Of a stretch of 64,000 nt of DNA, positions 23,601 to 49,951 are shown piece by piece (the stretch's first letter is position 1; each line of letters starts with the position of its first letter). The notes beneath the pieces were generated by a model, which was not told where the DNA came from, made no database searches, and worked only from the letters and a program-made list of their open reading frames with translations. Both the position numbers and the translations under genes were made by a program. The stretch is from a virus: the IMG/VR virus record IMGVR_UViG_3300027973_002292, positions 1 through 64,000 of that record; one strand, 5' to 3'.

Positions 23601-23980
23601 CCGCGAATACTGCAAATACAATTGTTTTGAGAGATGCTTCGGGTAATTTTTCAGCAGGAACGATCACTGCATCTGTAGTAGTAGCAGGGACACTAACAGA
23701 ATCTTCTTCTATACGTTACAAAGAAAACATAGAAACAATAACCGAACCAACATTAGATAAATTAAATAATATCCGCCCCGTAACATATAATAAAAAAGAC
23801 AATAAAGACAAAAAAGAATACGGTTTAATTGCAGAAGAGCTATACGAAATATTCCCAGAACTAATTAACAAAAATCAAGACGGCGAAATTGAATCGGTTA
23901 ATTACTCTAGGTTAACTGTGTTATTAATAAAGGCTGTCAAAGAACTAAAAGAAGAAATAGAAATACTAAAGAACAAATAA
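17684..23980 (+). CDS. Long fibre protein with Gly-Ser-Ser collagen-like linkers and C-terminal peptidase S74 intramolecular chaperone
   Basis: (GSS)n and GPT repeats, many GNVGIGTxxP fibre repeats, [20 protein letters not shown]...YGLIAEE...VNYSRL S74 motifs. Confidence 0.85.
17841..18186 (+). repeat. (Gly-Ser-Ser)n coding minisatellite, block 1
   Basis: Degenerate 9/18-bp GGNTCATCT/GGNTCTAGC units. Confidence 0.95.
18543..19120 (+). repeat. (Gly-Ser-Ser)n/(Gly-X-Y) coding minisatellite, block 2
   Basis: Same units plus GANGTPGGP and GPT inserts. Confidence 0.95.
20713..21100 (+). repeat. (Gly-Ser-Ser)n block 3 with four GANGTPGGP units
   Basis: Repeated GGATCTTCAGGCGCTAATGGAACTCCAGGAGGACCAGGGTCATCT. 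Confidence 0.95.
22408..22635 (+). repeat. Gly-X-Y collagen-like block 4
   Basis: GSS, GTS and GPT triplets. Confidence 0.9.
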
Positions 23981-23986
23981 AAATTT

Positions 23987-26900
23987 ATGGCAAGTTTACA
24001 AGGAACAACGGTTAATAATTACCTACGAACATTAGAGCAAGTAAGAGCTATGGGCTGGTATGGAACTCCTACAGGAACTTCTTATACTGCCCTTGGAGCA
24101 GAACTTGGCGTCTCTGGCGGCGAAGCATATTTGCTTTGCTACAATAGAGATACTAGCGCATATGGCGTATTAAATATAGCTGGCAGCGCGTCTAACTTAA
24201 GAATATCTGGATCGGTTTTTAATTTACAAACAGGCTCTTTACAGCAAGCAGGCAACCAAGTCCTCCACGCTGGTAACGTCGCGACTTACGCCCTGCCGAT
24301 AGGTGGAGGGACGTTGACTGGCGCTCTTAACGGAACCTCTGCGGCGTTTAGCGGAGCTGTTTCAGGAGCTTCATTGAGCATCTCAGGCGCAAGTTCTTTA
24401 AACAGGATAAATTTAAATTCAGCGACAAACGCCATTATACAGTACAGATCCCCAGGTCAAGGAACATCAACTCTAAACTTCCCTTTTTATAATAATGTAA
24501 GTAATGGGTCTATCTGTATAGAAATGGCAGATAACGACACTGGTGGACTAATGATCGACAATGAAGGTGTCACTGTTTATGGAGCTGGGGATATAGGAGA
24601 GGTTTTTAGAGTTATAGATGAAGATGTCTATCAATCGAATAGTAATATAACATTATCAAGAACATTCTGGATAAATCAAGGTCTAAACGGAGGAGGTGGA
24701 ATACTTGGGGCCTTTACAATATCCGGCAACACAGCCATTCACGCTGGTAACGTCGCAACGTATGCCCTTCCGATTGGAGGAGGAACACTCACTGGCGGAC
24801 TTAGCGGAACTACAGGTTCTTTTTCAGGTGATTTATCTATCGCAGGATATTATCAAATAAGAGGTGGTGACCCTACGATTACATTTAGAGACACAAATAA
24901 CAGAACGGCGTATATACATGTTAATAACGATATTTTTTATGTGTTAAGTGGCCCAGCGGATTCTGCTTTCGGTAATTGGGGTACAGTTGCTAATGGCAGA
25001 TGGCCTATGGAGCTTAATATATCAAATAATAATGCTACTTTTGGCGCAGACGTAAATGCAATTAGTTTTACTGGAGCAGGAACAGGTTTAACAGGAACCG
25101 CATCTAGTTTAAGTATCGGAGGTAATTCTGCTAATGTTAATATTTCTAATTTAGCCACACAACAAGTAAGTATATCTTTAGCTGCTGGTTCTTGGTACAC
25201 AATCGCCGCCAATGATAGCAATAGAGCTTCTGCAAAATTCACTATTACAGACACATCAAGCGGCTTACATCAAGCTATACATTTTTATGCTACCGCTCAT
25301 TACGGAACTGATTCAGGGGCAAAAATATCAGTAATAAGTAATACTTACTATGGTGGCCCTCCTGTTAGTGCAATAAAAATAATGAAAGGAAGCACCTATG
25401 ATGGAGCTATGGTTCAAATATATGCTATGAGCGCATGCGCTTTAACTGTTTCTATATATGATAATCAACAATCTAGCGGATGGGTAATTAAGAGCGGTGT
25501 GGTGTCTACTACAAATCCTGGAACTGTAGCGGCTTTTGCTTCTTTGACTACGATAGCGGCGGCGGTTGATTTAAGTGCCGCAAAATCATTTAGTGTGTCT
25601 GATGAAATTTATATTGGTGGAGCAACAACTCAGTATAAAGCTTTACATACTAATAACTACAACTCATATGCACTGCCGCTGTCGGGTGGAGCTATCACCG
25701 GGAACAGCACTTTCTCGGCGGATAACTATCTCACCTTTGGACCCAATTCATCCTGGAGTCGGTATCTACGCATCGGTGGAAATGGGTACACCGCTCCTGT
25801 GACTACAACCGCATCAGTTGTTACTACAAACGGCAACCTTCATTTGGATGCAGCCAAGGCAGCGGGTATGGCAATATACCTTAACTGGTATGGTGGTGCT
25901 GGTGGAACAATTTTTGGAAATGGATCTGGAACACAAGTAGGTGCGGTAGATAGTGCGGGTAACACTTCGTTCATTGGAACTCTGGCTATCACTGGCGCAA
26001 TCACTGGCGCTAGCTTTTCGGGTGCTGGTACAGGCCTCACTGGTACTGCTGCTAGTTTAACTGCGGGAGCTGTCCCGTGGTCAGGCATTACCAGCAAACC
26101 GACTACTCTAGCTGGGTTTGGTATCACCGATGCAGCAGCAATAAATGGTGCAAGTAATCAGACTTTTAGTGCCAGTGCAATTTATCAATACGAGTGGCTA
26201 AGAATTATGACGGATGCAGGTATTTACTGGCAATCTGGAACATATGCTGGTTGGCACATATATCCTCAAGCTGCCTGGGGGATGAGTTTAAGATCTGCAA
26301 GCACTGATTGTGGATTACAGCTTAGAAGAAGTGATAACACGCTTCTAGGCAGTCTGTATTCAGACGGAACAAGTATAGGGTTTTTAAACGCTTCAAATGG
26401 ATGGGGAGCTTCTTTTACAATTGCAGGAGCAATGAACAGAGGTTCTGTTCCCGGTTCATTGGTTACGGGTAATATATCTGGCAACGCAGGTTCGGCCACA
26501 AACGTCTCATGGTCGGGTATCACCAGCAAACCAACTACGTTGTCTGGATTTGGAATCACCGACGCCCTGCCATTGGCTGGGGGGGCGTTGACCGGAACTG
26601 TGTCTATTGATACCTCCGGTACAGGGGTTAACAGTACGGTGGCCATAAAGCGGAGCGGTCAAGGTGTTGTTAACTTTGGATCGTATGCTGGATCTTGGAG
26701 ATCCGCGTTGCAGATTCAAAGTAACGCTAACGACAGGATGCTGTTCTTTGTCCCTCCTGAGGCTGATTACCAGTACGGCGTAATTCGATCCATTAACGGA
26801 GGGTTGAAAATTGATGTCGGAGGAACAACAGGAAACGGCGGGGGTAACGCGATAAGCATTGAAACTTCTGGTGCTGTCTCGATGCCAGGGACGTTGAACG

Positions 26901-28636
26901 TGGTTGGCGCGGTTACGCAGAACGGCAACCAAGTCCTCCACGCTGGTAACTACATCGGTTCCTACATTGCCAATGAAACCAGTTACACGACTGCAATCAA
27001 CGCAAGTGGGTATACTTGGATTCGCATACCTTACGCTAGTGGGTACTCATTTAATGATGGGCAGAGTCCAGTTGAGTTTTACGTAACACGCAGTATTTTT
27101 GCTAACGGCAGCACCCCATACGGTGGACCGACAGCAAAGTTCATCATCCAGAGCAATGAGTGGCACAACGGTCAACAGATGGGGACAGTCCAGTATGGTG
27201 AGCGCGGAGACAGCGCAAGCTTAGGTGCAGCGAACTGGATAACGCATGCTAAGGTAACAAACTTGGCTGGAGGCGGGTACTGGATGTACCTGCGGCTCAA
27301 AACAGGCACAGCAGCCGGTGTTACATACTACATCCGAAGGTCCGCAGTCGGCGGTCAGGGACTTAACGCCTCTGAAATTGAAGTAACAACTGACCCCGGT
27401 GGCGCGGCTACACTTTATTACGGGTTCAACCTGATCTCAGCGGGTAATGAGGCGAGGTTTTATCGCGATGGAAATCAGGTGCTAGACGCTGGTAACTACA
27501 CCAGCTACCCAGACGCCACTAAGTTACCATTGGCTGGAGGCACACTCACAGGTTCATTATTTCTTTCGTCAGTGACTGCCGGCACAAGCACAACTTGTTT
27601 AGTTCTAGAGTCTAACGGAGAAGTTAGAACAAAAGTAAACGCTGCAAGCTCTGGCTCGTCTGGTTCATCTGGAGCAAACGGCGGCGCAGGCGGAGCTGGA
27701 CCTCCAGGGCCTCCCGGAGGAGCTGGAGGAACTGGATCTAGCGGATCTAGCGGTTCATCTGGAGCAAACGGCGGCCCAGGAGGACCAGGAGGAACTGGAT
27801 CTAGCGGATCTAGCGGTTCATCTGGAGCAAACGGCGGCCCAGGAGGACCAGGAGGACCAGGAGGAACTGGATCTAGCGGATCTAGCGGTTCATCTGGAGC
27901 AAACGGCGGCCCAGGAGGAGTTGGGCCTCCCGGGCCTCCCGGGTCTCCCGGGAGTGGAACCTCTGGTTCTTCTGGCTCAAGCACAGCAAGTGCATTAGTT
28001 GCAGCAAATAGTTATACAGTCGCGGAATTAAACGTCTCGACTTCGGCTTATCCTTCGCTATATGTAACATCTACTGGAGGCGCGGCATCAATAAGGCTTT
28101 TAGCGTATTCAAGTTCAAATTATATACAATCAGCGACTTCCGCAGGCTCTGGTAGTGCTGACCTGATTTTTAGTAGTGGAGGAGCCGCTAGTGAGTGGAT
28201 GCGTATACTAGGAACTAACGGTAACATTGGCATAAAAACTGCAAGCCCTGGGTATCATTTAGATGTAAATGGAAACGTCCACGCAGTATCTCATCCAACC
28301 TCTTCAGATGTTAGATTTAAAAAGAATATTAAGCCAATAGAAAATGCTCTTTCTAAAGTACTAAAATTAAGAGGAGTAAAATACGAATGGAATGAATTCA
28401 TAAACAACACAAGAGACGGATACGATTTAAATTCTCCTATCATTGGGTTCATTGCTCAAGAATTGGAACTCATCGTGCCCGAATTGGTCTCTAAATGGAA
28501 ACTTAACGAAGACTGCCAAGACGCAAGAGCTGTAGATTACCCAAGAGTTGTTGTCTTATTAACAGAAGCTATAAAAGAACAGCAAGCACAAATAAATGAC
28601 TTAAAAACAAGAATTTCTATTTTAGAAAATAAATAA
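23987..28636 (+). CDS. Second long fibre protein with collagen-like segment and C-terminal S74 chaperone
   Basis: Repeats GNQVLHAGN..ALPIGGGTLTG and WSGITSKPTTLxGFGITDA; GPP/GSS segment at 27645-27980; SDVRFKKNI...IGFIAQE...VDY S74 motifs. Confidence 0.85.
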   Translation: MASLQGTTVNNYLRTLEQVRAMGWYGTPTGTSYTALGAELGVSGGEAYLLCYNRDTSAYGVLNIAGSASNLRISGSVFNLQTGSLQQAGNQVLHAGNVATYALPIGGGTLTGALNGTSAAFSGAVSGASLSISGASSLNRINLNSATNAIIQYRSPGQGTSTLNFPFYNNVSNGSICIEMADNDTGGLMIDNEGVTVYGAGDIGEVFRVIDEDVYQSNSNITLSRTFWINQGLNGGGGILGAFTISGNTAIHAGNVATYALPIGGGTLTGGLSGTTGSFSGDLSIAGYYQIRGGDPTITFRDTNNRTAYIHVNNDIFYVLSGPADSAFGNWGTVANGRWPMELNISNNNATFGADVNAISFTGAGTGLTGTASSLSIGGNSANVNISNLATQQVSISLAAGSWYTIAANDSNRASAKFTITDTSSGLHQAIHFYATAHYGTDSGAKISVISNTYYGGPPVSAIKIMKGSTYDGAMVQIYAMSACALTVSIYDNQQSSGWVIKSGVVSTTNPGTVAAFASLTTIAAAVDLSAAKSFSVSDEIYIGGATTQYKALHTNNYNSYALPLSGGAITGNSTFSADNYLTFGPNSSWSRYLRIGGNGYTAPVTTTASVVTTNGNLHLDAAKAAGMAIYLNWYGGAGGTIFGNGSGTQVGAVDSAGNTSFIGTLAITGAITGASFSGAGTGLTGTAASLTAGAVPWSGITSKPTTLAGFGITDAAAINGASNQTFSASAIYQYEWLRIMTDAGIYWQSGTYAGWHIYPQAAWGMSLRSASTDCGLQLRRSDNTLLGSLYSDGTSIGFLNASNGWGASFTIAGAMNRGSVPGSLVTGNISGNAGSATNVSWSGITSKPTTLSGFGITDALPLAGGALTGTVSIDTSGTGVNSTVAIKRSGQGVVNFGSYAGSWRSALQIQSNANDRMLFFVPPEADYQYGVIRSINGGLKIDVGGTTGNGGGNAISIETSGAVSMPGTLNVVGAVTQNGNQVLHAGNYIGSYIANETSYTTAINASGYTWIRIPYASGYSFNDGQSPVEFYVTRSIFANGSTPYGGPTAKFIIQSNEWHNGQQMGTVQYGERGDSASLGAANWITHAKVTNLAGGGYWMYLRLKTGTAAGVTYYIRRSAVGGQGLNASEIEVTTDPGGAATLYYGFNLISAGNEARFYRDGNQVLDAGNYTSYPDATKLPLAGGTLTGSLFLSSVTAGTSTTCLVLESNGEVRTKVNAASSGSSGSSGANGGAGGAGPPGPPGGAGGTGSSGSSGSSGANGGPGGPGGTGSSGSSGSSGANGGPGGPGGPGGTGSSGSSGSSGANGGPGGVGPPGPPGSPGSGTSGSSGSSTASALVAANSYTVAELNVSTSAYPSLYVTSTGGAASIRLLAYSSSNYIQSATSAGSGSADLIFSSGGAASEWMRILGTNGNIGIKTASPGYHLDVNGNVHAVSHPTSSDVRFKKNIKPIENALSKVLKLRGVKYEWNEFINNTRDGYDLNSPIIGFIAQELELIVPELVSKWKLNEDCQDARAVDYPRVVVLLTEAIKEQQAQINDLKTRISILENK

Positions 28637-33343: not shown

Positions 33344-34225
33344 ATGAGCGAAGACATGCAACTAAAGTGGAAAGTAACAGCAATGGACTGCTACCCTGAG
33401 TTCAGCGGCGCAACCGATTATGTGTTTAACGTCCACTGGGACTGCTTGTCTTATTATAACGGCGTAAGCGGCGGGCCATACTATGGTAGAGTTTATAGCG
33501 TAACTAGCATTCCAGCCGCTCCTGGGCCAGCCACGCCTTACCTTGACTTGCAGGAAAATCAAGTGTTAGATTGGGTTTATTCGGTTTTTCAATCTGGAGA
33601 TAAAGAAAGATTTGAAAACTCATCAATTCAACAAATAGTTAACCAAATTGCTCCTCCAGTAGTAACTCCTCCAGCTCCTTGGCCCGCAGATATATTTCCA
33701 GTTATTGCCCCGTCCATTACAATACAGCCTCAATCTGGCATTTCTTTATGGTCTGGGCAGAATATCTATGTGTCATTAATGGCTGCCGGCCAACCTCTAA
33801 ATTATCAATGGAGAAAAGATTCTGAAAATCTATCAGGAGTGAATGGAGACGGATTACAAATTTTAAACATACAACTAGATCAAGCTGGGCTCTATGATGT
33901 TGTAGTATCGAACTCTTTGGGGTCAGTTACAAGTTCTGGGTGCCAAATTTCTGTCGCTCCTCCAGTTGTTCCAGTGATAGTAGATCAACCAGCGGGAGGA
34001 GAAGCCGTTACTGGATCTTCATTTATATTTAATGTAATAGCGACGGGATATCCGACTCCATCTTATCAATGGATGTTTAATAGTTCAGAGATTTCTGGAG
34101 CTGTATGGGCAGGATATGATTTACCGAATTTGCAAGAGAATCAAGCCGGAGATTATACGGTTAAAGTATCTAATGCTGCTGGAGAAGTTTTGAGTAATGT
34201 TGCTCATTTGAATGTTGTAATTTGA
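33344..34225 (+). CDS. Fibre-associated protein with two I-set immunoglobulin-like domains
   Basis: N-terminal WKVTAMDCYP...VFNVHW domain; two Ig repeats PxIxxQP...YQW...AGxYxVxVSN. Confidence 0.8.
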   Translation: MSEDMQLKWKVTAMDCYPEFSGATDYVFNVHWDCLSYYNGVSGGPYYGRVYSVTSIPAAPGPATPYLDLQENQVLDWVYSVFQSGDKERFENSSIQQIVNQIAPPVVTPPAPWPADIFPVIAPSITIQPQSGISLWSGQNIYVSLMAAGQPLNYQWRKDSENLSGVNGDGLQILNIQLDQAGLYDVVVSNSLGSVTSSGCQISVAPPVVPVIVDQPAGGEAVTGSSFIFNVIATGYPTPSYQWMFNSSEISGAVWAGYDLPNLQENQAGDYTVKVSNAAGEVLSNVAHLNVVI

Positions 34226-39541: not shown

Positions 39542-42500
39542 ATGTCTACTACAATTACAGCGGGACTTAGAGTTGATACGTCTGCGGCTTACAAAGATAT
39601 TGATCTTTTTAAGTCAAGAATAAATAAAAGCTTCAGTCAACCACTAGGAAGAATTAGTGGTGACGCAGCAGAGTTTTCTAAATCACTGCAAGCAGCCGCT
39701 GCCCGCGTAACAGCATTCGGGGCTACTACTGGAAGCATTTATTTAGTTACTAAAGCTATCTCAGAAACAGCAAGAGCCACAATAGAAGTAAATAAACAGT
39801 TAACAGAACTAAATACTTTCTTAGGAGAGTCTGAGTCTAGTCTTCAGAACTTTAGCAAAACTTTATTTTCAATCGCTAGAAATACAGGCTCAACTTTTTC
39901 TGACGCTACAGAAGCTGCTAAAGAGTTCGCCAGACAAGGCTTGTCAACTGAAGAGACATTAACCAGAACTAACGATGCGCTTGTCTTATCTAGAATTTCT
40001 GGTTTAAATTATGCTCAATCGGTAAACAGTATAACGACTGCTCTTAACGGTTTTAGTAAAGAAGCTTTAACTAGCACAGATATCATAAATAAGCTAATTG
40101 CTGTTGACACAAGATTTGCAGTTAGCTCTAAAGACCTAAGCGAAGCTCTAACCCGCGTAGGAAGTGCTGCTGAAGAAGCCGGCTTGTCTTCTGATCAATT
40201 GGTTGCTACAATTACTACTGCCCAACAAATCACTGGTCGTGGCGGTGCTGTAATCGGTAACGCTTTAAAAACAATCTTTACAAGAGTAAGAAGACCAGAA
40301 ATATTAGATCAGCTTAAGCAAATCGGAGTAGTCGTTACTGATCAAAATGGATCTCTGCTTAATGCTATTGATATTCTTAAGAACTATACGAATGTAACAA
40401 AAAATCTAAGCCAAGCTGAAAAATCAAGAACAGCAGAGCTTCTTGGCGGTGTTTATCAGATTAACCAATTACAATCAGTCATTAGAGACTTGGGAAGCGC
40501 CAACAGTATTTATGCAAGCTCTCTTAAGATTTCTATAGGAGCTACAGATGAGGCTATTAAGAAAAATTCCGAATTAAATAAAAGCTATGCTGCGCTAATT
40601 AATGACACTGCAAATTTAGCAACGCAAGTTGGGTCGGATATAGGTAAAAGCTTGTTTGGGCCAATTATTTCTGGCGGGGCTGGTGTTACAAAAGCAATAT
40701 TAGAATTTCTTTCTCCAGAGAGCATTGCTCCTCAAATTGGTAAAGCTGGGCAAGAAATTGGAAAAAATTTATCTAGAGAAATTGGTAAGGGAGTTCTAGA
40801 CACGCTTGGTAATGCATTGGTTTTCGTTGGAGCGCCAGTTGCGGCTGTAGTTGCTGGGTCTATAGGTAAAAGGCTGCTTTCGTTTTTAGGCGCATCAGTA
40901 AAAACGCAAATAAAAGGCATCACAGATCCATTAGGGAGAGTCGTTACGGGAGGCTCTTTCAGCGGAGATAAAGAAAGAGAGCAATTAAATTTAATAAATC
41001 AAATTTCAGATGTTGTAAAGAAAAATAATTTTATTGGTGAAGCTACCGTTAAGGGAGTCTATAATGAAGGCAAAGCTAGAAGAGAGGTTTTAAAAGAAAT
41101 TTTAGCACAAAATTCTCTACTAGAAAGACAAGCAAATTTAGCCCAAACAATTTTTAATACAATAAGTAAAATAAAGCCCACTGTTACAACTATAGGGCAA
41201 GTAAATTCTTTTGGATTAAATCAAGTTAACCCAAGGAGAAATGCTAAAGGAAGATTTGTTGCTTCTGGATATATTCCAAATTTTTCAATGGGATTAGCAG
41301 AACAAGAAGAGTCTGCTGCAAAAGGGTTCGGAGCCAAAAATCCTAAGGCTCGATTAATCAGAGCTACAATCAAAGGTAAAACTGGCCCAGTAATGATTAA
41401 CGACGAAGAGGATGTGGTTCCTAATTTCGCTGGCACAGGAGAAACAGCAATCATTCCTAGATACAGAAACGTTAAAGACATCCCCAGAATGGCTAAGGGA
41501 TATGTTCCTAATTTTAGTAACGCATCAGGAAGTTTTGGAACTGTTTCTAAGATTAATGAAAGCCAAGTTAGAAAAGAGTTTTTTTCTGGAGCAGGACAAT
41601 CAGGAGCAGGAGAAATAGCTAATGAATTTTTGGCTTCTAGAAAATTATCTGAGCAGATTCAAGCAAGCAGAGAGCTTGGTTATCAGGGCATGCGTGGAGG
41701 ATATATAGGAAAACTTTTTGAGGCTCCTCATACATATGGCACATTAGAAGACTCTATTAGATCTGGATCTATAGTCAAAGGCTTAGCTCCGGGAAAAACC
41801 GCCAAAGATATCGGAGATAATCTAGATAAATATACAGGAGAGTATAAAAATTATTATGAATTAGTAACAAATTTGGGAAGACTATCTGCTAAACAAATCA
41901 ACTCTGGAAAAGCAATGGAGGCCAGAGATTTAGCTAATTTTGGAAATTTAATGCTTAATAAAAAAGCAGAAGATCTTATTACTAAAATAGTTTCCAGAAA
42001 AGGGAGCGATAGACTTGTAGGGAAAATGAATAGTTCTTGGCAATCTACTAGTAGAGTAGCAGAAGGATTAGCTAGACAAGGAGCAAGAATTAGTATAGTT
42101 GATCCAGGTATTTTTGGAGGCTTAGGCGAAAAGAGAAAAAAAGAATTAGCAAAACTTGGCTATCAAGATAATTATCGTGAAATGACTGGGGCAAATGCTG
42201 CTGGTTATATTCCTAATTTTGCTAAAAAAGATAAATATAAATTCCCAAATATTTCTTCTAATAAGATGGAAGCAAATATTGGCAAAAATTTTGAAAAACT
42301 AACCCCTGAGAATCAAAGATATTTCGCAAGAGCTTACGAAGATTACAACAATTTAATTAAAGTTTTTTCTAAGGCTTCTGGAACTTCTCCAGAAAAGTTT
42401 GCTAATGTAATGTCTGCCCTTTCTCCTGCTAACCCATTAGAGAGAAACGCATTAGACGCTTTAAGATATAACTTGTTCTACCAAAAGAAACTCTCAACAG

Positions 42501-45500
42501 CAGCTTCTCCAATTTTCATAGACGAAAGAGAAATAGGGTCGGTAAAGGCTCAAACATATGGAGCAAACAGAACTAAAGCTGCAAATTTACTTGTTGGTTT
42601 AGAAAAGCTTACAGGAAATAAGAGAAAATCGTTCGTAAACAACATGTTAGATCCATTTCAAAGCACGGATGTTACAGTTGACTACAGAGCTCAAGGCGAC
42701 GCATTGAATAAACAATTTAATGTAAAAAATGCCCCTTCTATGAATAGGGAGCAATATGATAAAGTTTCCCAAGCGTTCAGAAACGTTGGATCTAAAGCAG
42801 GCGTTAGTGGTTTGGGGGTTCAAGCAGCGACTTGGATTGGTGGAAGAATGGGTTCTAAAGCTGCAAGAGGACAAGATTTCAATAGAGGAATTTTAAAATT
42901 TTTCTATGATAATCCAGATAAGATTAGTTTAGAGAATCTTGAGTTTTTGCTTTCTGTTCCAGGAAAAGGAAAGGCTAGAAAGGATTTCTTTAAAAACGCT
43001 TCAGCGATGGGTGTTTCTAAATTGGGATCTGATAGTCTTATTTCAATTCCAAGGGTAGGCGGGTATGTTCCTAATTTTGCAGGGTTTAATTTATCTACTA
43101 TAAGATTCTTGACTAAAGCTAGTGCTAAAATGTCTGGTTCAGTTCTTTCGCCTAAAACGTTAATAAAATTTGCTACTGGAAAAGGAAAAGTGGAGGATCT
43201 TGTAAATCCATTCTTAGATTTCTTAAAAAAACCTGCTGATCTTATTAATAGCCCTCAAGATTTAGAGGATGCAAAATCTGTTATAAATCTTATATTTAAA
43301 AATAATCAAGCTAGAGAAATGGCAGCTAGCAGGCTAGCTCCAATTATTAATGAGTCAAGTTTTAGTGTTAAATCTCAAGAAGAAGCGGTTTCTACAGGAA
43401 TACAATACCCCGACGGCGGAAGAGGCTATAGAGACTATAGAGATTTTTTACGTTATAAATTATTGGGCGGCCAAAAAGAATACGAAGAGTATGTAGGCAA
43501 CGAGTATGGCCCAAAAGCTTTAATTAAAAATAAAGATGGAAGTTATAGATTCAATCCGAAATCTACACAAGGACAATTAGAGTTGTCTGATGTTAGACAA
43601 GCAGCTAAAGTTTTATTTTCTACTCCAGAACAAATTGCTGAATCGAGAGCATTAATGGTTGGCAGGGATGTCCAAAAACAGTATAAAGCAAGAAAATTAG
43701 GACCAGAAGATAATGTTCCTGGACCTAACCCATTTTTAGGCTATACATATAAATTAGGAAGATTTATTGGTAACGTAGGAAAGAAAAGAAAAGCTGTAAA
43801 ATACACAGATAGATGGGATGTAGAATTACACCAAGGAGAAAGAGATGTGATGGAGAATTTTTTAAAAAACACATCTGAAATTTCAGATTTAGAGACAAGA
43901 AAACAAGTCGCCAATTATTATATAGATAGAGACTTAAGCGATAGTAGTTACGCTGGAGATATAAATAGTTTAATAGTGAAAGAATTATTATCTTCTATTC
44001 CTGGAGCAAACCCAATACTTTTAAAAGGCGCAGCTAGAGCTCCAAAAGGAGAGAGCATTTTCGCAAAAGGCTATATTCCTAATTTCTCTGGCTTATCTGA
44101 TTCAATAAGCAGAGAGAAATCTATGACTGGTCTTCCGGTTTCTCAAATCATGGCTCATTTTGATAAGAGCGGAAATCCAATAGCAGTAACAAACAAAAAA
44201 GATGAGCCTAATGGTCTCAAAGATGTAGTCCCAAATTTTGCACCGAGAGTAAAGGTTCCAAAAACTCCAAGAGGTAAAAAAGGAACAACTGCGGCTCAAG
44301 TTTCTGATTTATTTAGTTCTTTTTTTGGTGAGTCAATTGGAATAGGGCTTTTTCAATCTTTATCAAGCACATTAGCTGACAGAGAAGTCTTGTCTGAAGA
44401 TGTTAATACAGCAACGCAAATTGGTGCGCCTGCTCTCCTGGCGATTTTGCAGGGCATGAGAGGCTTAAAAGCTTCTAAAGGTCAAAAGCTGGGAGCAAGA
44501 GCTGCAGCGTTAGGCGTACCAGTAGCTTTAGGGGGAGCGCAAGCAGCCATGGGGTTTTATGCTTCCAGATCTGTTGGCGAAGATCTCCAAAGAAGAAAAC
44601 TTGAAAAAGAATCAGACAAAGCAGCAAAAGAGTTTAAAGACTTAACAGAAGGAACTCAAGAACTTGCAGATACTCTGTCCAAATTAAATGAATCTTTTAA
44701 AGACGCCTCATCGTCTCCAGAGCAATTATTTAATTTAAGTAAAAGAGCCTCTGAGTTAACAAAAAACGTAACTAAAAATAATCCTGCACTAGCAGCGGCA
44801 ATTTCTTCAGAGCCTAATGTAGAAAAGAAAATTAATTTAATAGAAGATGCTCGCAGAAAAGCCTCTCAACAACAAGCGGTAAAACAAGAAATCATACAAT
44901 TCGAAGGGTCTAAAACAAAATCTCCAGAAGATTTAATTAATTTATTTTCTAAAGAAATTTCTTTGGCTAATGATAAATTATTGCAATTAAACAGCAAAGA
45001 TTTAGTGCCTGCAAATTTTGATAAAATTCTTTCTGATGCTGATTTAGTGCCTTTAAAAACTTTCTTTGACCTTCAAAAAGAAGAGATAAAAAACAAATTA
45101 ATCCCATCATTTTTAGAGGCTGTAAAATTAGAAATAGAATACAATAAAATAAGTAAAGAAAGCATTAAACAAATAAAAGTTTTAAAAAGCGAAGAGATCA
45201 AAGCTAGCAAAGAGATAGAGGGAAAAAAAGTAAGAAGACAAGCCGGTTTAGAAGCTTTAAAATCGGGAGCTGAAGAGCTGAAGCCTTTTGCCGGTCAATT
45301 CGGGGCTAGAGCAGCTATTTCATTCGAGTCAGATCTTCAAAAAACAAAAGAGTCTATTTCAGCAATTACATCTTTCAGAACTCAAATAAACACAAAGCTA
45401 ATAGACAAAGACTTAAAACTTCCAACTAATGTTACTGATAAATTGCAAGGAATTCAAACTCCTGGGCAAGACGCTGGGGCTGTATTAGCAGAATTATCTA

Positions 45501-48500
45501 AGACTCCTGGTTTAAATGAAAAACAAATAGAAGCTCTAGAAGAATTAATTACTACTAATGAAACCCAATCTAGAGAGCTTAAAAAGATTTCCGACATTTC
45601 AGAAATAAATAAAAATGCTCAGCTTAGGGTTTTAAGTATTCAAGAAAAGTTAACCTATGGCGGCGGCATAAAAACCAGCATAGACTCTAGATCAAGAATC
45701 GATTCTATCAATGCTCCAATAAAGGGCCTTCTAGAAAGCAGACTAGGAGCAACTCTTGGTTCCGAAAGATCTCAAACTTCTGGAATGGTTAATGTAGTTA
45801 AATCTATTAAAGACTTATATCCTGGTCTTATAGAAAATTCTAAAGCTCTTGGGTCTGTAAGAGATAGGTTAACTAATCTTAGAGCTAATGACTTGAGAAA
45901 AGATCTTTTTAGGAACGCTTCTTTATTAGAATCCGCTGGCGGATATGGAGATATTCCTGGAATGCTAAGGGCTAAAGGGCTTGATTCTGAAGGATTGAAA
46001 ACTTTAGCAGCTACTCAAGCCGAAGCGGAGCTATCTGGAGGGAACTCTCCTCAAGAAACTACTAGATACTTAGCGGATGTAATTAAAGCCGCTACTGCTG
46101 ATTTAAATCTAACAATACAAGAAGGCCAACAAATTAAGGCTTTGCAAGAAAAGACTGCTGCTCCAGTAGCAGAAATAAATAAAGAAACTGAAGTCGCTAG
46201 ACAAAAATTTTTAACTTCGCTTACAGATTCTGTAAAAAAAGCTTTTGGAGAAAAAATAGACGTCCAAACTGTAAACATATCTAATGCTAGTGTCAATATA
46301 ACTCCGTCTTCGACATCTCAATCTGGAGAATCTTCTGGCGCAGCCCAAGCTAGGGCTTCCATGGCCACTATGGCATCTGGAGCGTCTGGTCCCAGAAGCA
46401 AAGGGTTTATTCCTTCTTTCTATAACCCCTTAAGAGAGGCGGTCCAAAGAGAAAGCCAATATGTTCCATTTAGTTCAATAAGAATTAACAAGAGCAATAA
46501 ATTAATAAATCAAAATAACCCACTAGGTTTAGGCGTGACTAATACAATTGATGAGCCAAATGGTTTAGCAAGTATTGGTTTAGCTTCAAAGGGATATGTT
46601 CCTAATTTTGCTTCTAAATCTAAAATTTTAGATAAAGTTCTAACAGATAAAAGTTTGTATGGGCCTAAAATATCTAAACAAGCTCAAGGATTGGCTAAGA
46701 AAGGTGAATTATGGGGTCTTGATTACGCAGCTTCTAATCCAAAGAAGGGAGATTACGTTCTATATAAAATAAAACCAGATGGCTCTTTAGGAGAAAGAGG
46801 TATGCCAAATAAAGGCGATACCGTTTTGAGCCACGTTGCAGCAAGCAAGTTCTTAGGAGGAGTAAAAGATCTCCTTCCTATATCTAAATTAGCTGAACCT
46901 CCAAAGAGTCAAGAAGCTTCGTTGGCTGGCGGAACTATTTTACCAACTTCAAGCATAGATAAGATAATCAGAGATGTTAAAAAGAAAGGCGGATCAGCTA
47001 CAGATCTTCAAAAAGCTGTAGAAACATTTGCTAAACAAAATTTATCTACATCTAATTTCTTAATTAAAACTGGAGTAGGCGATTTGTCAATCCAAAGCAA
47101 AGGAGTTTTCGGAATCAATTCAAAGCCACTAGATTCTTCAGCTTATGGAACAATTTTAAATGATTATGGAAGAGGAAAAGGTAAAAGTTCAGATTTCTTT
47201 ATTCAAGAAAAAGCTCAACTTTCTGATCAACATAATGAGTCAAGAGTACATGTAGCTATTGATGGGAAAGGCAACGTTAAACTTGTAAGGAATGGAACTA
47301 TAGACAAATCAACAGGAGGGAACCTTGCTAAAGGGTCTTATAGAAGAGCTGCGGAAAGAGCCGCTTTGCAAGCTGCCGAAGCATTCGTTAAAGCTAATCC
47401 AAAATTGGCAAAAAATCAATTTTTAGGTTTAGATGTAGGAGCGGTCGCAGCTACAGAAGGTAAGAGACTTGGGTTAACAACAAAACCTTTTAGCGAGTTG
47501 GGCCAAAAATTTAATCCAATTGTTTTTGAAATAAACCCAACAAGCAGAAGAGGAAGTCAAGGCGGATCTGGATTCGTTTCCGCTGAAAACCCTTTTTCAA
47601 AAGCAAGCCCATCTGTTTTTAATTCTATTTTATCAAGACTTGGAGTTAAATCAAATAATAAATTAGTCCAATCTAACGTTTTAGAAGCCTTATCTAAGGG
47701 AGTAATGGGAAATGATACATTATTAGGATCTGTAAAAAATAAAATTGCAGATACAAATATTCCATTTCCAAGCTCATTTTTTGGAAAAGTCAAAGGAGCT
47801 TTTTCAAGCAGTTCTTCTAAAGTTAAGTCTTTGTTCCAGAATGCTGGAGCTAAAATTTCAAATCTTGGCAATTCAGTTTTTGGTTCAGTTGGCTCTAAGT
47901 TTTCTGGTGTAACCGACAAAATTGGAGCTGGGTTATCTGGTCTCACTGGAAGAGTTAAAGGAGGCTTAGGGGGCATGGCGGCTGGGTTATCTGGTCTCAC
48001 TGGAAGAGTTAAAGGAGGCTTAGGGGGCATGGCGGCTGGGTTATCTGGTTCCTCTGGAAGAGTTAAAGGAGGTCTTTCTGGAGTTTTGACTGGATTAGGA
48101 TTTTTGGGCAATGTGCAGCAAATAGGGGAAAATAGGGAAGCTGATAGAAATTTAGAGGAGTATCTTTCAAAAGCAGCTGCTACATCCATTATACCCGCTG
48201 CGGCACTTGGTCTTACAGACTTTCTTGCGGGGGGGAAACTTTCGGCTAAGCATGAGGTTATTAAGGGTAAGATAGGTAAGGTAGCATCGAAAGGTTTACA
48301 AGCCGCTTCAGCTTTTAGCACCGCTGCCGAATCAGCAACAGAGTTTAGAGAAGGAAATTTCGGATTAGGGGCAGTAAAAGGAGCCGAAGCGGCAGCTTAT
48401 GCTGCTTCGCTGTTCGAAGGGGTAGGCAAAACGTTACCTAAGGGAAAAGGCCTTTTAGGCTCGCTTGGTAATGTTACTCCAAAAGCTTTATCTCAAGTAG

Positions 48501-49951
48501 GCGGAAAAGCATACGGAATAGGCTCTGCTTTGGGCTTAGGCGCAGAGATAGCTAAAGCTAAGGATAACGCTATAGCTGAAGACTATTCTGACATACTATT
48601 TGGCAAAAAAGAAGAGGATATAGATCCTGAGACTGGAGAAGTGACCAAGGGAAGATCTATACTAGGTGCAGGATTCGATGTTTATGGAACCGCTATGGGT
48701 GCTATAGCTGGCGGACCAGTTGGTCAAGGAGTAGCTGCATTTAAGATAGGCTATAGAGCCGGAAATGTAATAGAAAATCAAGCTGGCCTTGGAGAAAAAC
48801 TCGGCAAAATATATGAAGATAAAATCAATAAAGAAAGAGGTGGAGAAATAGCCATTAGAGAAGCTAGATTAAAAGCAAAGAAAGAGCTCTTTAAAGACGC
48901 AAAAGATCTTGAAATCAGGATAGCTAAAATAGAAGAGCAGGGCAAAAAAGGCGTAGAAGAAGAGAGAATTAAAGGAGCAAAAGGTCTTGCTGAAGTTTAT
49001 AAGGGATCTCAAGCCGATAAAGAGAAAAACGACAAAGAAAAAACAGCCCCTTTGAGAAAAGGAATTATAGAAGGTATTGTAAAAAATCAAGAGGCTAATG
49101 GCTTATTCACCTCAAGAGACAAGGCCAATTACTTGATGAGCCAAGAAGCTATCTATGGAAAATTTAAGCCCGAAGAATTTGCAGACAAGGAACTCTACAA
49201 GTCTTACGAAGCTTATTCTAAAGAAAGAGAAACTACTCAAGCAAGAGAGCAAAAATTTAATTCTGCAGTAATGAATCCAGAAATGGCTGGATCTCAAACC
49301 TATAAAATTGATCAATTTAGAGCCGAATCAGAAAGACAATCTGCTATGTTAGCTTCTGCGCCAAAAGACGCTTTAGAAGAAGCTATGAGAAGGGGAGTCT
49401 CTGTTGAGCAGGTAATAGAAGAGAGAAAAAAGATTAATAAATCTAGAGGCTTTATTCCTAACTTCTCTAACGCTTACAATAGAGAAAAATTAGACATCCT
49501 TAGAAATCCAGATTACTCTGGCTATAGAAACGCTGTTCCTCAGCCATCTAAATACTATAAAAATATAGTAAAAAACAGCGCAGAGATTGAAGTCCCGGCA
49601 GCTGAGGTTTATAACAGAATGGGATATTTTGGAGCAACCCCAAAGAACCCTTCCGAGCAATACGCTATTCTCAATCCAGCTCAGCAATCTAAATTGGGAT
49701 ACGCTTCAGGCGGATTCGTGCCAAACTTTGCTGCTGAACAATTTGCTGGCGCTGTTAGTGACGCTATGCAAAAAGCGCTATCTCCATTAATAGACAAGGT
49801 CGGAACTTCAGTTAGTAACTCTAATGTTATTAATGTAAGCGATCAAAGATCTTATCAAACTGGCTCCGATAGAATTACTGGTATAATGGAATTCTTATAT
49901 TCTCAATTCCCTAAGGAAATGGGAAGACAAATGGGCCCTAAACTAGTATAA
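39542..49951 (+). CDS. Tape measure protein (3469 aa) with embedded enzyme-like domains
   Basis: N-terminal TMP core (EFARQGLS...DKL/NKLIAVD...GAVIGNALKTIFTR...LKQIGV); position after tube and chaperones; 11 PNF-type motifs delimiting globular inserts. Confidence 0.88.
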   Translation: MSTTITAGLRVDTSAAYKDIDLFKSRINKSFSQPLGRISGDAAEFSKSLQAAAARVTAFGATTGSIYLVTKAISETARATIEVNKQLTELNTFLGESESSLQNFSKTLFSIARNTGSTFSDATEAAKEFARQGLSTEETLTRTNDALVLSRISGLNYAQSVNSITTALNGFSKEALTSTDIINKLIAVDTRFAVSSKDLSEALTRVGSAAEEAGLSSDQLVATITTAQQITGRGGAVIGNALKTIFTRVRRPEILDQLKQIGVVVTDQNGSLLNAIDILKNYTNVTKNLSQAEKSRTAELLGGVYQINQLQSVIRDLGSANSIYASSLKISIGATDEAIKKNSELNKSYAALINDTANLATQVGSDIGKSLFGPIISGGAGVTKAILEFLSPESIAPQIGKAGQEIGKNLSREIGKGVLDTLGNALVFVGAPVAAVVAGSIGKRLLSFLGASVKTQIKGITDPLGRVVTGGSFSGDKEREQLNLINQISDVVKKNNFIGEATVKGVYNEGKARREVLKEILAQNSLLERQANLAQTIFNTISKIKPTVTTIGQVNSFGLNQVNPRRNAKGRFVASGYIPNFSMGLAEQEESAAKGFGAKNPKARLIRATIKGKTGPVMINDEEDVVPNFAGTGETAIIPRYRNVKDIPRMAKGYVPNFSNASGSFGTVSKINESQVRKEFFSGAGQSGAGEIANEFLASRKLSEQIQASRELGYQGMRGGYIGKLFEAPHTYGTLEDSIRSGSIVKGLAPGKTAKDIGDNLDKYTGEYKNYYELVTNLGRLSAKQINSGKAMEARDLANFGNLMLNKKAEDLITKIVSRKGSDRLVGKMNSSWQSTSRVAEGLARQGARISIVDPGIFGGLGEKRKKELAKLGYQDNYREMTGANAAGYIPNFAKKDKYKFPNISSNKMEANIGKNFEKLTPENQRYFARAYEDYNNLIKVFSKASGTSPEKFANVMSALSPANPLERNALDALRYNLFYQKKLSTAASPIFIDEREIGSVKAQTYGANRTKAANLLVGLEKLTGNKRKSFVNNMLDPFQSTDVTVDYRAQGDALNKQFNVKNAPSMNREQYDKVSQAFRNVGSKAGVSGLGVQAATWIGGRMGSKAARGQDFNRGILKFFYDNPDKISLENLEFLLSVPGKGKARKDFFKNASAMGVSKLGSDSLISIPRVGGYVPNFAGFNLSTIRFLTKASAKMSGSVLSPKTLIKFATGKGKVEDLVNPFLDFLKKPADLINSPQDLEDAKSVINLIFKNNQAREMAASRLAPIINESSFSVKSQEEAVSTGIQYPDGGRGYRDYRDFLRYKLLGGQKEYEEYVGNEYGPKALIKNKDGSYRFNPKSTQGQLELSDVRQAAKVLFSTPEQIAESRALMVGRDVQKQYKARKLGPEDNVPGPNPFLGYTYKLGRFIGNVGKKRKAVKYTDRWDVELHQGERDVMENFLKNTSEISDLETRKQVANYYIDRDLSDSSYAGDINSLIVKELLSSIPGANPILLKGAARAPKGESIFAKGYIPNFSGLSDSISREKSMTGLPVSQIMAHFDKSGNPIAVTNKKDEPNGLKDVVPNFAPRVKVPKTPRGKKGTTAAQVSDLFSSFFGESIGIGLFQSLSSTLADREVLSEDVNTATQIGAPALLAILQGMRGLKASKGQKLGARAAALGVPVALGGAQAAMGFYASRSVGEDLQRRKLEKESDKAAKEFKDLTEGTQELADTLSKLNESFKDASSSPEQLFNLSKRASELTKNVTKNNPALAAAISSEPNVEKKINLIEDARRKASQQQAVKQEIIQFEGSKTKSPEDLINLFSKEISLANDKLLQLNSKDLVPANFDKILSDADLVPLKTFFDLQKEEIKNKLIPSFLEAVKLEIEYNKISKESIKQIKVLKSEEIKASKEIEGKKVRRQAGLEALKSGAEELKPFAGQFGARAAISFESDLQKTKESISAITSFRTQINTKLIDKDLKLPTNVTDKLQGIQTPGQDAGAVLAELSKTPGLNEKQIEALEELITTNETQSRELKKISDISEINKNAQLRVLSIQEKLTYGGGIKTSIDSRSRIDSINAPIKGLLESRLGATLGSERSQTSGMVNVVKSIKDLYPGLIENSKALGSVRDRLTNLRANDLRKDLFRNASLLESAGGYGDIPGMLRAKGLDSEGLKTLAATQAEAELSGGNSPQETTRYLADVIKAATADLNLTIQEGQQIKALQEKTAAPVAEINKETEVARQKFLTSLTDSVKKAFGEKIDVQTVNISNASVNITPSSTSQSGESSGAAQARASMATMASGASGPRSKGFIPSFYNPLREAVQRESQYVPFSSIRINKSNKLINQNNPLGLGVTNTIDEPNGLASIGLASKGYVPNFASKSKILDKVLTDKSLYGPKISKQAQGLAKKGELWGLDYAASNPKKGDYVLYKIKPDGSLGERGMPNKGDTVLSHVAASKFLGGVKDLLPISKLAEPPKSQEASLAGGTILPTSSIDKIIRDVKKKGGSATDLQKAVETFAKQNLSTSNFLIKTGVGDLSIQSKGVFGINSKPLDSSAYGTILNDYGRGKGKSSDFFIQEKAQLSDQHNESRVHVAIDGKGNVKLVRNGTIDKSTGGNLAKGSYRRAAERAALQAAEAFVKANPKLAKNQFLGLDVGAVAATEGKRLGLTTKPFSELGQKFNPIVFEINPTSRRGSQGGSGFVSAENPFSKASPSVFNSILSRLGVKSNNKLVQSNVLEALSKGVMGNDTLLGSVKNKIADTNIPFPSSFFGKVKGAFSSSSSKVKSLFQNAGAKISNLGNSVFGSVGSKFSGVTDKIGAGLSGLTGRVKGGLGGMAAGLSGLTGRVKGGLGGMAAGLSGSSGRVKGGLSGVLTGLGFLGNVQQIGENREADRNLEEYLSKAAATSIIPAAALGLTDFLAGGKLSAKHEVIKGKIGKVASKGLQAASAFSTAAESATEFREGNFGLGAVKGAEAAAYAASLFEGVGKTLPKGKGLLGSLGNVTPKALSQVGGKAYGIGSALGLGAEIAKAKDNAIAEDYSDILFGKKEEDIDPETGEVTKGRSILGAGFDVYGTAMGAIAGGPVGQGVAAFKIGYRAGNVIENQAGLGEKLGKIYEDKINKERGGEIAIREARLKAKKELFKDAKDLEIRIAKIEEQGKKGVEEERIKGAKGLAEVYKGSQADKEKNDKEKTAPLRKGIIEGIVKNQEANGLFTSRDKANYLMSQEAIYGKFKPEEFADKELYKSYEAYSKERETTQAREQKFNSAVMNPEMAGSQTYKIDQFRAESERQSAMLASAPKDALEEAMRRGVSVEQVIEERKKINKSRGFIPNFSNAYNREKLDILRNPDYSGYRNAVPQPSKYYKNIVKNSAEIEVPAAEVYNRMGYFGATPKNPSEQYAILNPAQQSKLGYASGGFVPNFAAEQFAGAVSDAMQKALSPLIDKVGTSVSNSNVINVSDQRSYQTGSDRITGIMEFLYSQFPKEMGRQMGPKLV
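47927..48072 (+). repeat. 54-bp tandem repeat x2.7 inside the TMP (AGLSGLTGRVKGGLGGMA)
   Basis: Identical units at 47927-47980 and 47981-48034, partial third copy. Confidence 0.92.

Follow-up and report, generated by a model that had tools for sequence, protein, structure and literature searches.

RimK, LysX and ArgX are ATP-grasp ligases that add amino acids to the C-termini of proteins; RimK, for instance, glutamylates ribosomal protein S6 at its C-terminus. Phage tape measure proteins (TMPs) are taken to be rulers and to form channels, and the passenger activities known from them cut the cell wall. T5 Pb2 is one TMP with an embedded enzymatic motif. Another is the TMP of mycobacteriophage TM4, which has a peptidoglycan-hydrolase motif (PMC1796659). 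Among ATP-grasp proteins, the R2K clade (CDC123, R2K.2 and R2K.3) has been proposed to provide effectors in type VI secretion system (T6SS) toxin systems and in phages (PMC4431377, PMC7824862). Here we describe a domain of about 320 residues that lies inside the TMP of an uncultured aquatic phage, encoded in a 64,000-nucleotide stretch of DNA (positions 1 to 64,000 of IMG/VR virus record IMGVR_UViG_3300027973_002292; hereafter the window). We judge that residues ~2370–2690 of this 3469-residue protein probably make up a genuine but highly divergent ATP-grasp module of the carboxylate-amine, peptide-bond-forming kind; its most likely role, which we put forward tentatively, is that of a ligase delivered by the virion.

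Predicted fold and active site of the domain

The fold was predicted with AlphaFold2 from a 12-row alignment of homologues (A2); a second alignment, A1, has 8 rows. The model has a mean predicted local distance difference test (pLDDT) score of 62.7 and a predicted template modelling (pTM) score of 0.56, and the ten-residue blocks of its catalytic core score 64–90, with one loop block at 49. Its strands bear K2509, FFIQE, SRVHVAI, LGLDVG and VFEINP in the expected order. Foldseek returned 133 matches to this model in the PDB at E ≤ 1e-3 and, as the sequence-only reading of the window had anticipated, these were ATP-grasp enzymes throughout among the matches listed. PurK (4ma0, E 9.7e-6) and TTL (3tig, 1.5e-5) came first, followed at the top by PurD, Ddl, MdnC, YwfE, ArgX and DcsG. 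When the Foldseek list was realigned with VIA-align, 291 of 996 chains reached Z ≥ 8. DcsG (6jil) gave Z 11.6, with a root-mean-square deviation of 3.6 over 187 aligned residues; carbamoyl-phosphate synthetase (CPS; 1ce8) gave 10.9, Ddl (3rfc) 10.8, a Streptomyces ATP-grasp peptide ligase 10.7, RimK (5zct) 10.3 (158 aligned, 19% identity), BacD (3vmm) 10.1 (234 aligned), LysX (3vpd) 9.8, TTL 9.5 and LysX/ArgX (5k2m) 9.0–9.4. A scan of 48,161 chains made independently of Foldseek found 17 at Z ≥ 8, again with DcsG at the top (Z 10.6), and its best 50 rows were ATP-grasp folds without exception. All structural matches cover about residues 64–346 of the model. In a viral structure library the matches were giant-virus and phage proteins of the TTL-like, CDC123 and ATP-grasp kinds; none was TMP-like by name or length, several of the rows being unnamed. 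Language-model features offer a further lead: the neighbours of the whole segment are RimK, TTL, Ddl and GSH-S clusters (0.88–0.90), and those of the core alone are short RimK-like phage proteins (0.91–0.92), the latter again a lead and not a test. On the strength of the predicted structure, we consider it very probable that the domain has an ATP-grasp fold.

An ATP-grasp protein consists of a RAGNYA domain followed by a protein-kinase/PIPK-like domain, and its catalytic positions are a basic residue, usually lysine, in the linker from the pre-ATP-grasp domain to RAGNYA, the lysine with which RAGNYA strand 2 ends, an acidic residue on strand 4 of the kinase-like half and an ExN motif at the end of the last strand (PMC4431377). 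The same source describes ExR on the first kinase-like strand as the mark of an assemblage nearly all of whose members are ligases forming peptide-like bonds, and gives the canonical loop after strand 2 as about nine residues long with the motif ssxGbGl. Both halves of the fold are present in the predicted model. We compared 17 distinct domain sequences, seven in the window's own >90% clade and ten at ~30% identity. All 16 sequences that cover them keep K2509, G2521, G2524, Q2555, K2557, D2631, E2663 and N2665, and all 17 keep E2566, R2568 and H2570; the rows without coverage are the partial sequences P0008 and L009. K2509, D2631 and E2663/N2665, all on model strands, correspond to the strand-2 lysine, the strand-4 acidic residue and ExN, and E2566 and R2568 make up the ExR motif. 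G2521-V-F-G2524 is invariant and is aligned by hhalign with RimK GIGV. The motifs singled out in the sequence-only reading are the invariant columns of the ~320-residue domain, and all five were found at the positions given there, in the frame of the 3469-residue open reading frame (ORF) (Table 1). The residues predicted to bind nucleotide and Mg2+ are thus conserved and in canonical order, and because this putative site is intact and strongly constrained, we think it fairly probable that the domain is catalytically competent, an active enzyme. Its residues and predicted fold point to a new family of ATP-grasp modules, of the carboxylate-amine ligase type.

The constraint on the domain can also be seen between close relatives. 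The core (residues 2468–2667) is identical at 194 of 200 positions (97%) to that of the closest TMP, P0002, as against 2597 of 3065 (85%) for the whole protein, and it is among the most constrained parts of the TMP. A composite regular expression holding the five motifs in order, written after the motifs had been seen and matching E. coli RimK as a control, matched at a single site across the window's six frames and in none of 5000 shuffles of the TMP. The motif match is more than chance. One metagenomic relative departs from this pattern: L009:1-456 has the C-terminal half of the domain only. Ahead of this half stand an in-frame stop and the sequence 'ETAFGESRVHV', as if a deletion had fused the strand of the Gly loop with that of ExR. 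Either this copy has decayed or, the contig being of low coverage, it was misassembled.

These constraints bear on a role without ligation, in which the domain would bind nucleotide as an ATP-sensing switch or plug that signals arrival in the cytoplasm, or would simply be a structural spacer. Such a role would suit the unconserved linker lysine and atypical Gly loop described below, the lack of a nameable acceptor-binding motif and the chiefly structural nature of TMPs. A spacer, however, would not hold K, ExR, D and ExN invariant at ~30% overall identity, nor would it be the best-conserved part of its TMP, and ExR is typical of the active, peptide-bond-forming members of the superfamily (PMC4431377). 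We regard a non-ligating role as very unlikely.

A number of observations weigh against the assignment. Neither the segment nor its sub-segments gave an ATP-grasp match in Pfam, NCBIfam or PHROGs, even at E ≤ 10, so that no curated ATP-grasp hidden Markov model (HMM) of Pfam or NCBIfam recognises the domain. In a Pfam scan none of the 12 A2 members matched an ATP-grasp family; four unrelated weak families appeared, in one member each. Searches of PDB sequences with phmmer (the segment) and hmmsearch (A1) returned no ATP-grasp chain. Aligned locally by hhalign, A2 and E. coli RimK paired LIK with VVK, the two Gly loops with each other, FIQE with VQEY and SRV with IRC, at a probability of 1%; in global mode the result was a meaningless alignment of 22 columns. 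Foldseek template modelling (TM) scores were only 0.24–0.39. The fold rests on one medium-confidence model from a shallow 12-row alignment, and an AlphaFold run on the single sequence gave a pLDDT of 35.8. Within the active site, the linker helix of the window begins with D2473-K2474, comparable to RimK 'DK' when mapped by eye, but the column of the linker lysine reads S, P, P, G, R and K in the other rows of A1 and so varies within the family. In the Gly loop, 11 residues separate the lysine from the first glycine, which makes it longer than the canonical loop, and the motif is GbbG.

The lack of any HMM or sequence match to an ATP-grasp family, together with a mean pLDDT this low, would be accounted for if the domain were not an ATP-grasp module at all and the motifs were a coincidence joined to an AlphaFold artefact. 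We consider this most improbable, for the best 50 of the 48,161 chains would then all be ATP-grasp folds by accident, the independent language-model features point the same way, and the motif residues are invariant columns whose order no shuffle reproduced.

The sequence-only reading had gone further and called the domain a RimK-like ligase inside a TMP. An ATP-grasp module within a true TMP is borne out by the predicted fold, by residue conservation and by the PF10145 match of the carrier described below; the RimK/LysX type is not. The RimK HMM PF08443 (cut-off 21 bits) found nothing at E ≤ 10 by hmmscan, and a six-frame search of the whole phage record with it gave no match, whereas 13 of 14 control genomes matched. 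The hhalign probability is low, as given above. In structure, RimK's Z of 10.3 is tied to within about 1.3 with those of DcsG, Ddl and CPS, and the L-amino-acid ligases lie in the same range (Z 10–11.6), so that the structural ranking assigns no sub-family. The language-model neighbours alone lean towards RimK-like proteins.

Table 1. Features of the TMP gene and its surroundings. Positions are those of the window; residue numbers are those of the TMP; model strands are numbered in the predicted model.
Feature	Positions	Strand	Remarks
Two fibre-like genes	within 17684–28636		2098 and 1549 residues
Major-tail-like gene	33344–34225		precedes the TMP gene
TMP gene	39542–49951	+	3469 residues, one open frame; from the ORF list
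DUF7178 domain, second non-TMP passenger in the TMP	42248–42838	+	residues 903–1099; PF23802, E 2.6e-19; phrog_3842, 6.9e-18
Segment between two G[YF][IV]PNF copies	43106–44062		residues 1189–1507; ~320 residues
GYVPNF motif, directly 5' of the domain	46592–46609	+	seventh of nine strict G[YF][IV]P[NS]F copies
N-terminal sub-domain	46613–46942	+	residues 2358–2467; one helix, four short strands, then a poorly modelled linker
Predicted ATP-grasp catalytic core	46943–47542	+	residues 2468–2667
FLIK, start	47057		residue 2506
K2509 (LIK), putative strand-2 lysine contacting ATP phosphates	47066–47068	+	16/16 sequences; model strand E149-153; paired with RimK 'VVK' by hhalign
QSKGVFG glycine loop	47093–47113	+	QSKGV from residue 2518; G2521, V2522, G2524 invariant, 16/16; paired with RimK 'TQGIGV' by hhalign
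FFIQEK hinge strand	47195–47212	+	FFIQE from residue 2552; F2553, Q2555, K2557 invariant, 16/16; model strand E195-199; paired with RimK 'ILVQEY'
ESRVHV, ExR motif, first strand of the kinase-like half	47237–47254	+	from residue 2566; E2566, R2568, H2570, 17/17; model strand E210-216
FLGLDV, start	47420		residue 2627
G2629-L-D2631, putative Mg2+-binding aspartate strand	47426–47434	+	G and D 16/16; model strand E269-279
VFEINP, ExN motif, end of the last core strand	47522–47539	+	from residue 2661; E2663, N2665, P2666, 16/16; model strand E298-309
Gly/Ser-rich tail of the domain (RRGSQGGSGF...)	47543–47680	+	pLDDT 30–46; 'GSSG[FY]' kept in relatives
254-residue ORF	47557–48321	−	probably spurious
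GSG, start	47564		residue 2675
54-nucleotide tandem repeat	47927–48072		2.7 copies, 96% match
Candidate membrane segment			residues 2878–2896

Ahead of the core lies a sub-domain of lower model quality (pLDDT 25–75), which only some structural alignments reach: that with BacD begins at model residue 32 and that with LysX at 35. The relatives keep 'KLYVxD...KVNPxG...LPxGxxTIS...LKDPxxTKLDEL' here, and the sub-domain is possibly a degenerate pre-ATP-grasp domain. Part of it (46694–46819, segment residues 28–69) matched wheat FKBP chains at E 0.0019. We judged this match to be chance and dropped it, as the short 'KKGD..L..I.P....GE.G.P' stretch behind it is confined to the window's clade and is absent in other members. 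Just 3' of the ATP-grasp domain is a Gly-rich tandem repeat of 54 nucleotides, or 18 residues ('GLSGLTGRVKGGLGGMAA'), which is present as a single copy in P0002; the reverse-strand ORF of Table 1 overlaps the repeat region. After the repeat comes a hydrophobic region rich in Gly and Ala, with a candidate membrane segment C-terminal of the domain.

Homologues, carrier gene and modular architecture

Relatives of the domain are few. A set of 1.84 billion representative proteins, scanned in full with the 356-residue segment, yielded seven, and the others came from scans of viral and metagenomic contigs and from one length-matched search. A tblastn search of 50,697 deposited phage genomes with the domain and with the core gave no match, even at E ≤ 10. 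All full-length carriers tested are giant TMPs: PF10145 was found in P0004, P0005 and P0007, and both PF10145 and DUF7178 in P0002 and P0009–P0013.

By its sequence matches, the 3469-residue ORF of the window is likewise a TMP. Its N-terminus matches PF10145 (PhageMin_Tail) over residues 113–301 at E 1.4e-28 in the Pfam scan, and the ORF matches PHROGs TMP profiles, the best at 1.2e-49. It is the longest gene of the tail module, a major-tail-like gene precedes it, and its close relatives of 3065–3535 residues carry the source name 'TP901 family phage tail tape measure protein'. Also upstream are genes for a terminase and for collagen-like fibres, and no sheath family was detected in the phage. 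The full record is a virus contig of 127,648 bases, with completeness rated at 84%. Besides the ATP-grasp module, the TMP carries DUF7178, of which the literature searched makes no mention. No protease or peptidase domain was among its Pfam matches. Farther upstream in the window, the two huge fibre-like genes hold repeats of the collagen triple helix (E 9.4e-53) and, at the C-terminus, Peptidase_S74 intramolecular-chaperone domains, and the G+C content is 0.52 at 26001–28000 as against ~0.35 elsewhere in the window.

The position of the domain varies between TMPs: it occupies residues 2372–2690 of 3469, 1728–2058 of 3189, 603–931 of 2151 and 608–944 of 2164. In P0004 the domain is the sole region in common with the window's TMP, and in P0005 it is joined only by a weak N-terminal match. 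No free-standing relative of 79–651 residues was found, a weak negative, as the 8000 top word-sharing candidates were scored and the 167-residue P0008 was missed; between 652 and 2000 residues the search gave P0003 alone. Since the domain takes varied positions in otherwise unrelated TMPs and no free-standing copy was found, we think that the ATP-grasp unit behaves as a portable, apparently mobile domain of ~320 residues specific to TMPs.

A short motif marks the N-terminal junction. The sequence-only reading had placed the domain after the ninth copy of this motif; the domain does directly follow a copy, the one at 46592, but that copy is the seventh of nine strict ones. G[FY][IV]PN[FY]A also precedes the domain in L001, L003, L004, P0003, P0006 and P0007. 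In P0004 and P0005, repeated 'D(T/S)VPA(L/M)L(T/S)PGEVVLN...GVPGF' modules flank the module instead of G[YF][IV]PNF. This suggests that different short motifs may serve the same junction role in different TMP lineages. Elsewhere in the window's TMP, a segment of similar length lies between the G[YF][IV]PNF copies at residues 1174 and 1510 (Table 1), and is precisely absent from the otherwise 80–87% identical P0002 (3065 residues). From its presence and absence, and from the length range of the relatives, it would follow that motif-bounded cassettes are gained and lost as units.

Where the putative ligase might act

In siphophages the TMP is expelled from the tail before the DNA, its C-terminal end leading, and provides the route by which the DNA crosses the envelope. 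ATP is found only in the cytoplasm. Because ATP is cytoplasmic and the TMP is expelled C-terminus first, a virion-delivered ligase is the simplest reading of the domain. The ejected TMP would carry the ligase domain into the host cytoplasm, where the domain, early in infection, would use host ATP to attach an amino acid or a peptide to some protein or metabolite of the host. The candidate hydrophobic stretch just C-terminal of the domain (residues 2878–2896) fits delivery. We put forward tentatively, from this analogy with siphophage ejection, that the domain is delivered and acts in the newly infected cell; the sequence-only reading had likewise proposed an injected peptide ligase that would tag host proteins. 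A more specific version, which we regard as rather doubtful, makes the TMP an enzyme injection vehicle: its C-terminal third would thread into the cytoplasm, and the ligase would refold there and, with host ATP, attach amino acids to a host protein, perhaps one of translation or defence, within seconds and before phage gene expression. Two points weigh against delivery in either form. Several (three or more) folded domains of ~35 kDa should not, by our reckoning, fit the lumen of the tail tube, where the TMP's other passenger segments would need room as well; the domain would need to pass through unfolded, or else be placed elsewhere. Moreover, the passage of this part of the TMP to the cytoplasm is hypothetical, and so is a host acceptor.

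The difficulty of fitting a folded 320-residue domain into the tail tube speaks for the main rival, a ligase that acts in the producer cell. There it might modify the TMP or tail proteins during assembly, by adding residues or cross-linking side chains, or it might be cleaved off at G[YF][IV]PNF and never enter the virion. The TMP is a late protein, made where ATP is available. A G[FY][IV]PN[FY]A or GVPGF motif always lies 5' of the domain, the cassette of residues 1189–1507 between two motifs is present in P0001 and absent from P0002, so that the motifs delimit units, and the structural neighbours include the peptide macrocyclases/ligases MdnC (5ig9) and 8ynq/8ynd. On the other hand, no protease domain was detected in the TMP, and cleavage at the motifs is hypothetical. 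For an assembly enzyme a gene of its own would be the simpler arrangement, but the searches turned up no free-standing copy, and the family shifts between unrelated TMP backbones and so seems untied to any one substrate in cis. On balance we find action in the producer cell unlikely.

Whichever site of action holds, an ATP-dependent ligase is sensible only where ATP is present, and a conserved ligase inside TMPs therefore implies either that the TMP can be a carrier of enzymes that act in the cytoplasm or that it can be a polyprotein that supplies assembly enzymes. Either would change how TMPs are read. Should the enzyme-injection reading be true, the domain would be the first virion-delivered peptide ligase and would give direct evidence of TMP segments acting in the cytoplasm. 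We see in the domain a new family of ATP-grasp proteins whose architecture, inside a TMP, is also new. No ATP-grasp peptide-ligase domain in a TMP was found in the literature searched, and where papers contain both 'tape measure protein' and 'ATP-grasp', the two terms are unrelated in the matching passages. The remark in the sequence-only reading that no TMP with such a domain was known thus agrees with the literature and database searches, within their limits. A profile of this family, which is invisible to Pfam, NCBIfam and PHROGs, would allow better annotation of large aquatic phages.

Comparison with known ligases and tape measure proteins

With RimK, LysX and ArgX the domain shares the predicted fold and the order of its motifs (K, G-loop, QE, ExR, D, ExN). 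It differs in having no PF08443 match and 18–19% identity in structural alignments, in its longer Gly loop (GbbG instead of GbG), and in a ~35-residue helical insert that most relatives have before the Asp strand and that is shorter in the window's clade. RimK, LysX and ArgX are, furthermore, free-standing enzymes, whereas the domain of the window is embedded in a structural protein of 3469 residues. The best structural matches are DcsG, D-Ala-D-Ala ligases, the BacD/YwfE L-amino-acid ligases and the ATP-grasp domains of CPS, which are small-molecule enzymes of cellular metabolism with 9–20% identity to the domain.

The R2K clade provides a precedent for an ATP-grasp peptide ligase in phage–host or inter-bacterial conflict. 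Like R2K proteins, the domain has ExR but no conserved linker lysine, and Cdc123 (4zgo) aligns at Z 8.8. R2K proteins have lost the Gly-rich loop motif and gained a second conserved K/R in the loop linking strand 2 to strand 3 (PMC4431377). We considered membership of this clade and rejected it, as the Gly motif is kept in 16 of 16 sequences and a K/R in that loop (K2520) occurs in only four of the eight A1 rows. Phage R2K proteins are also separate genes, whereas the domain described here is part of a TMP.

The polyvalent proteins of phages string together unrelated enzyme-like domains and are thought to enter the host with the DNA (PMC5512222). Like them, the TMP of the window strings together two unrelated passengers, DUF7178 and the ATP-grasp module. 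The zinc metallopeptidase that is pervasive in polyvalent proteins (PMC5512222) was not detected in the TMP by the Pfam scan, and in that paper TMPs go unmentioned and ATP-grasp is named for RNA ligases only. The closest parallel in architecture lies with the TMPs that carry enzymatic motifs. There too a passenger activity is used at infection, the gene has the same position, and the N-terminal domain is the same PF10145. The passengers known from those proteins have cell-wall targets and need no ATP, whereas the passenger predicted here would be ATP-dependent and sensible only in the cytoplasm.

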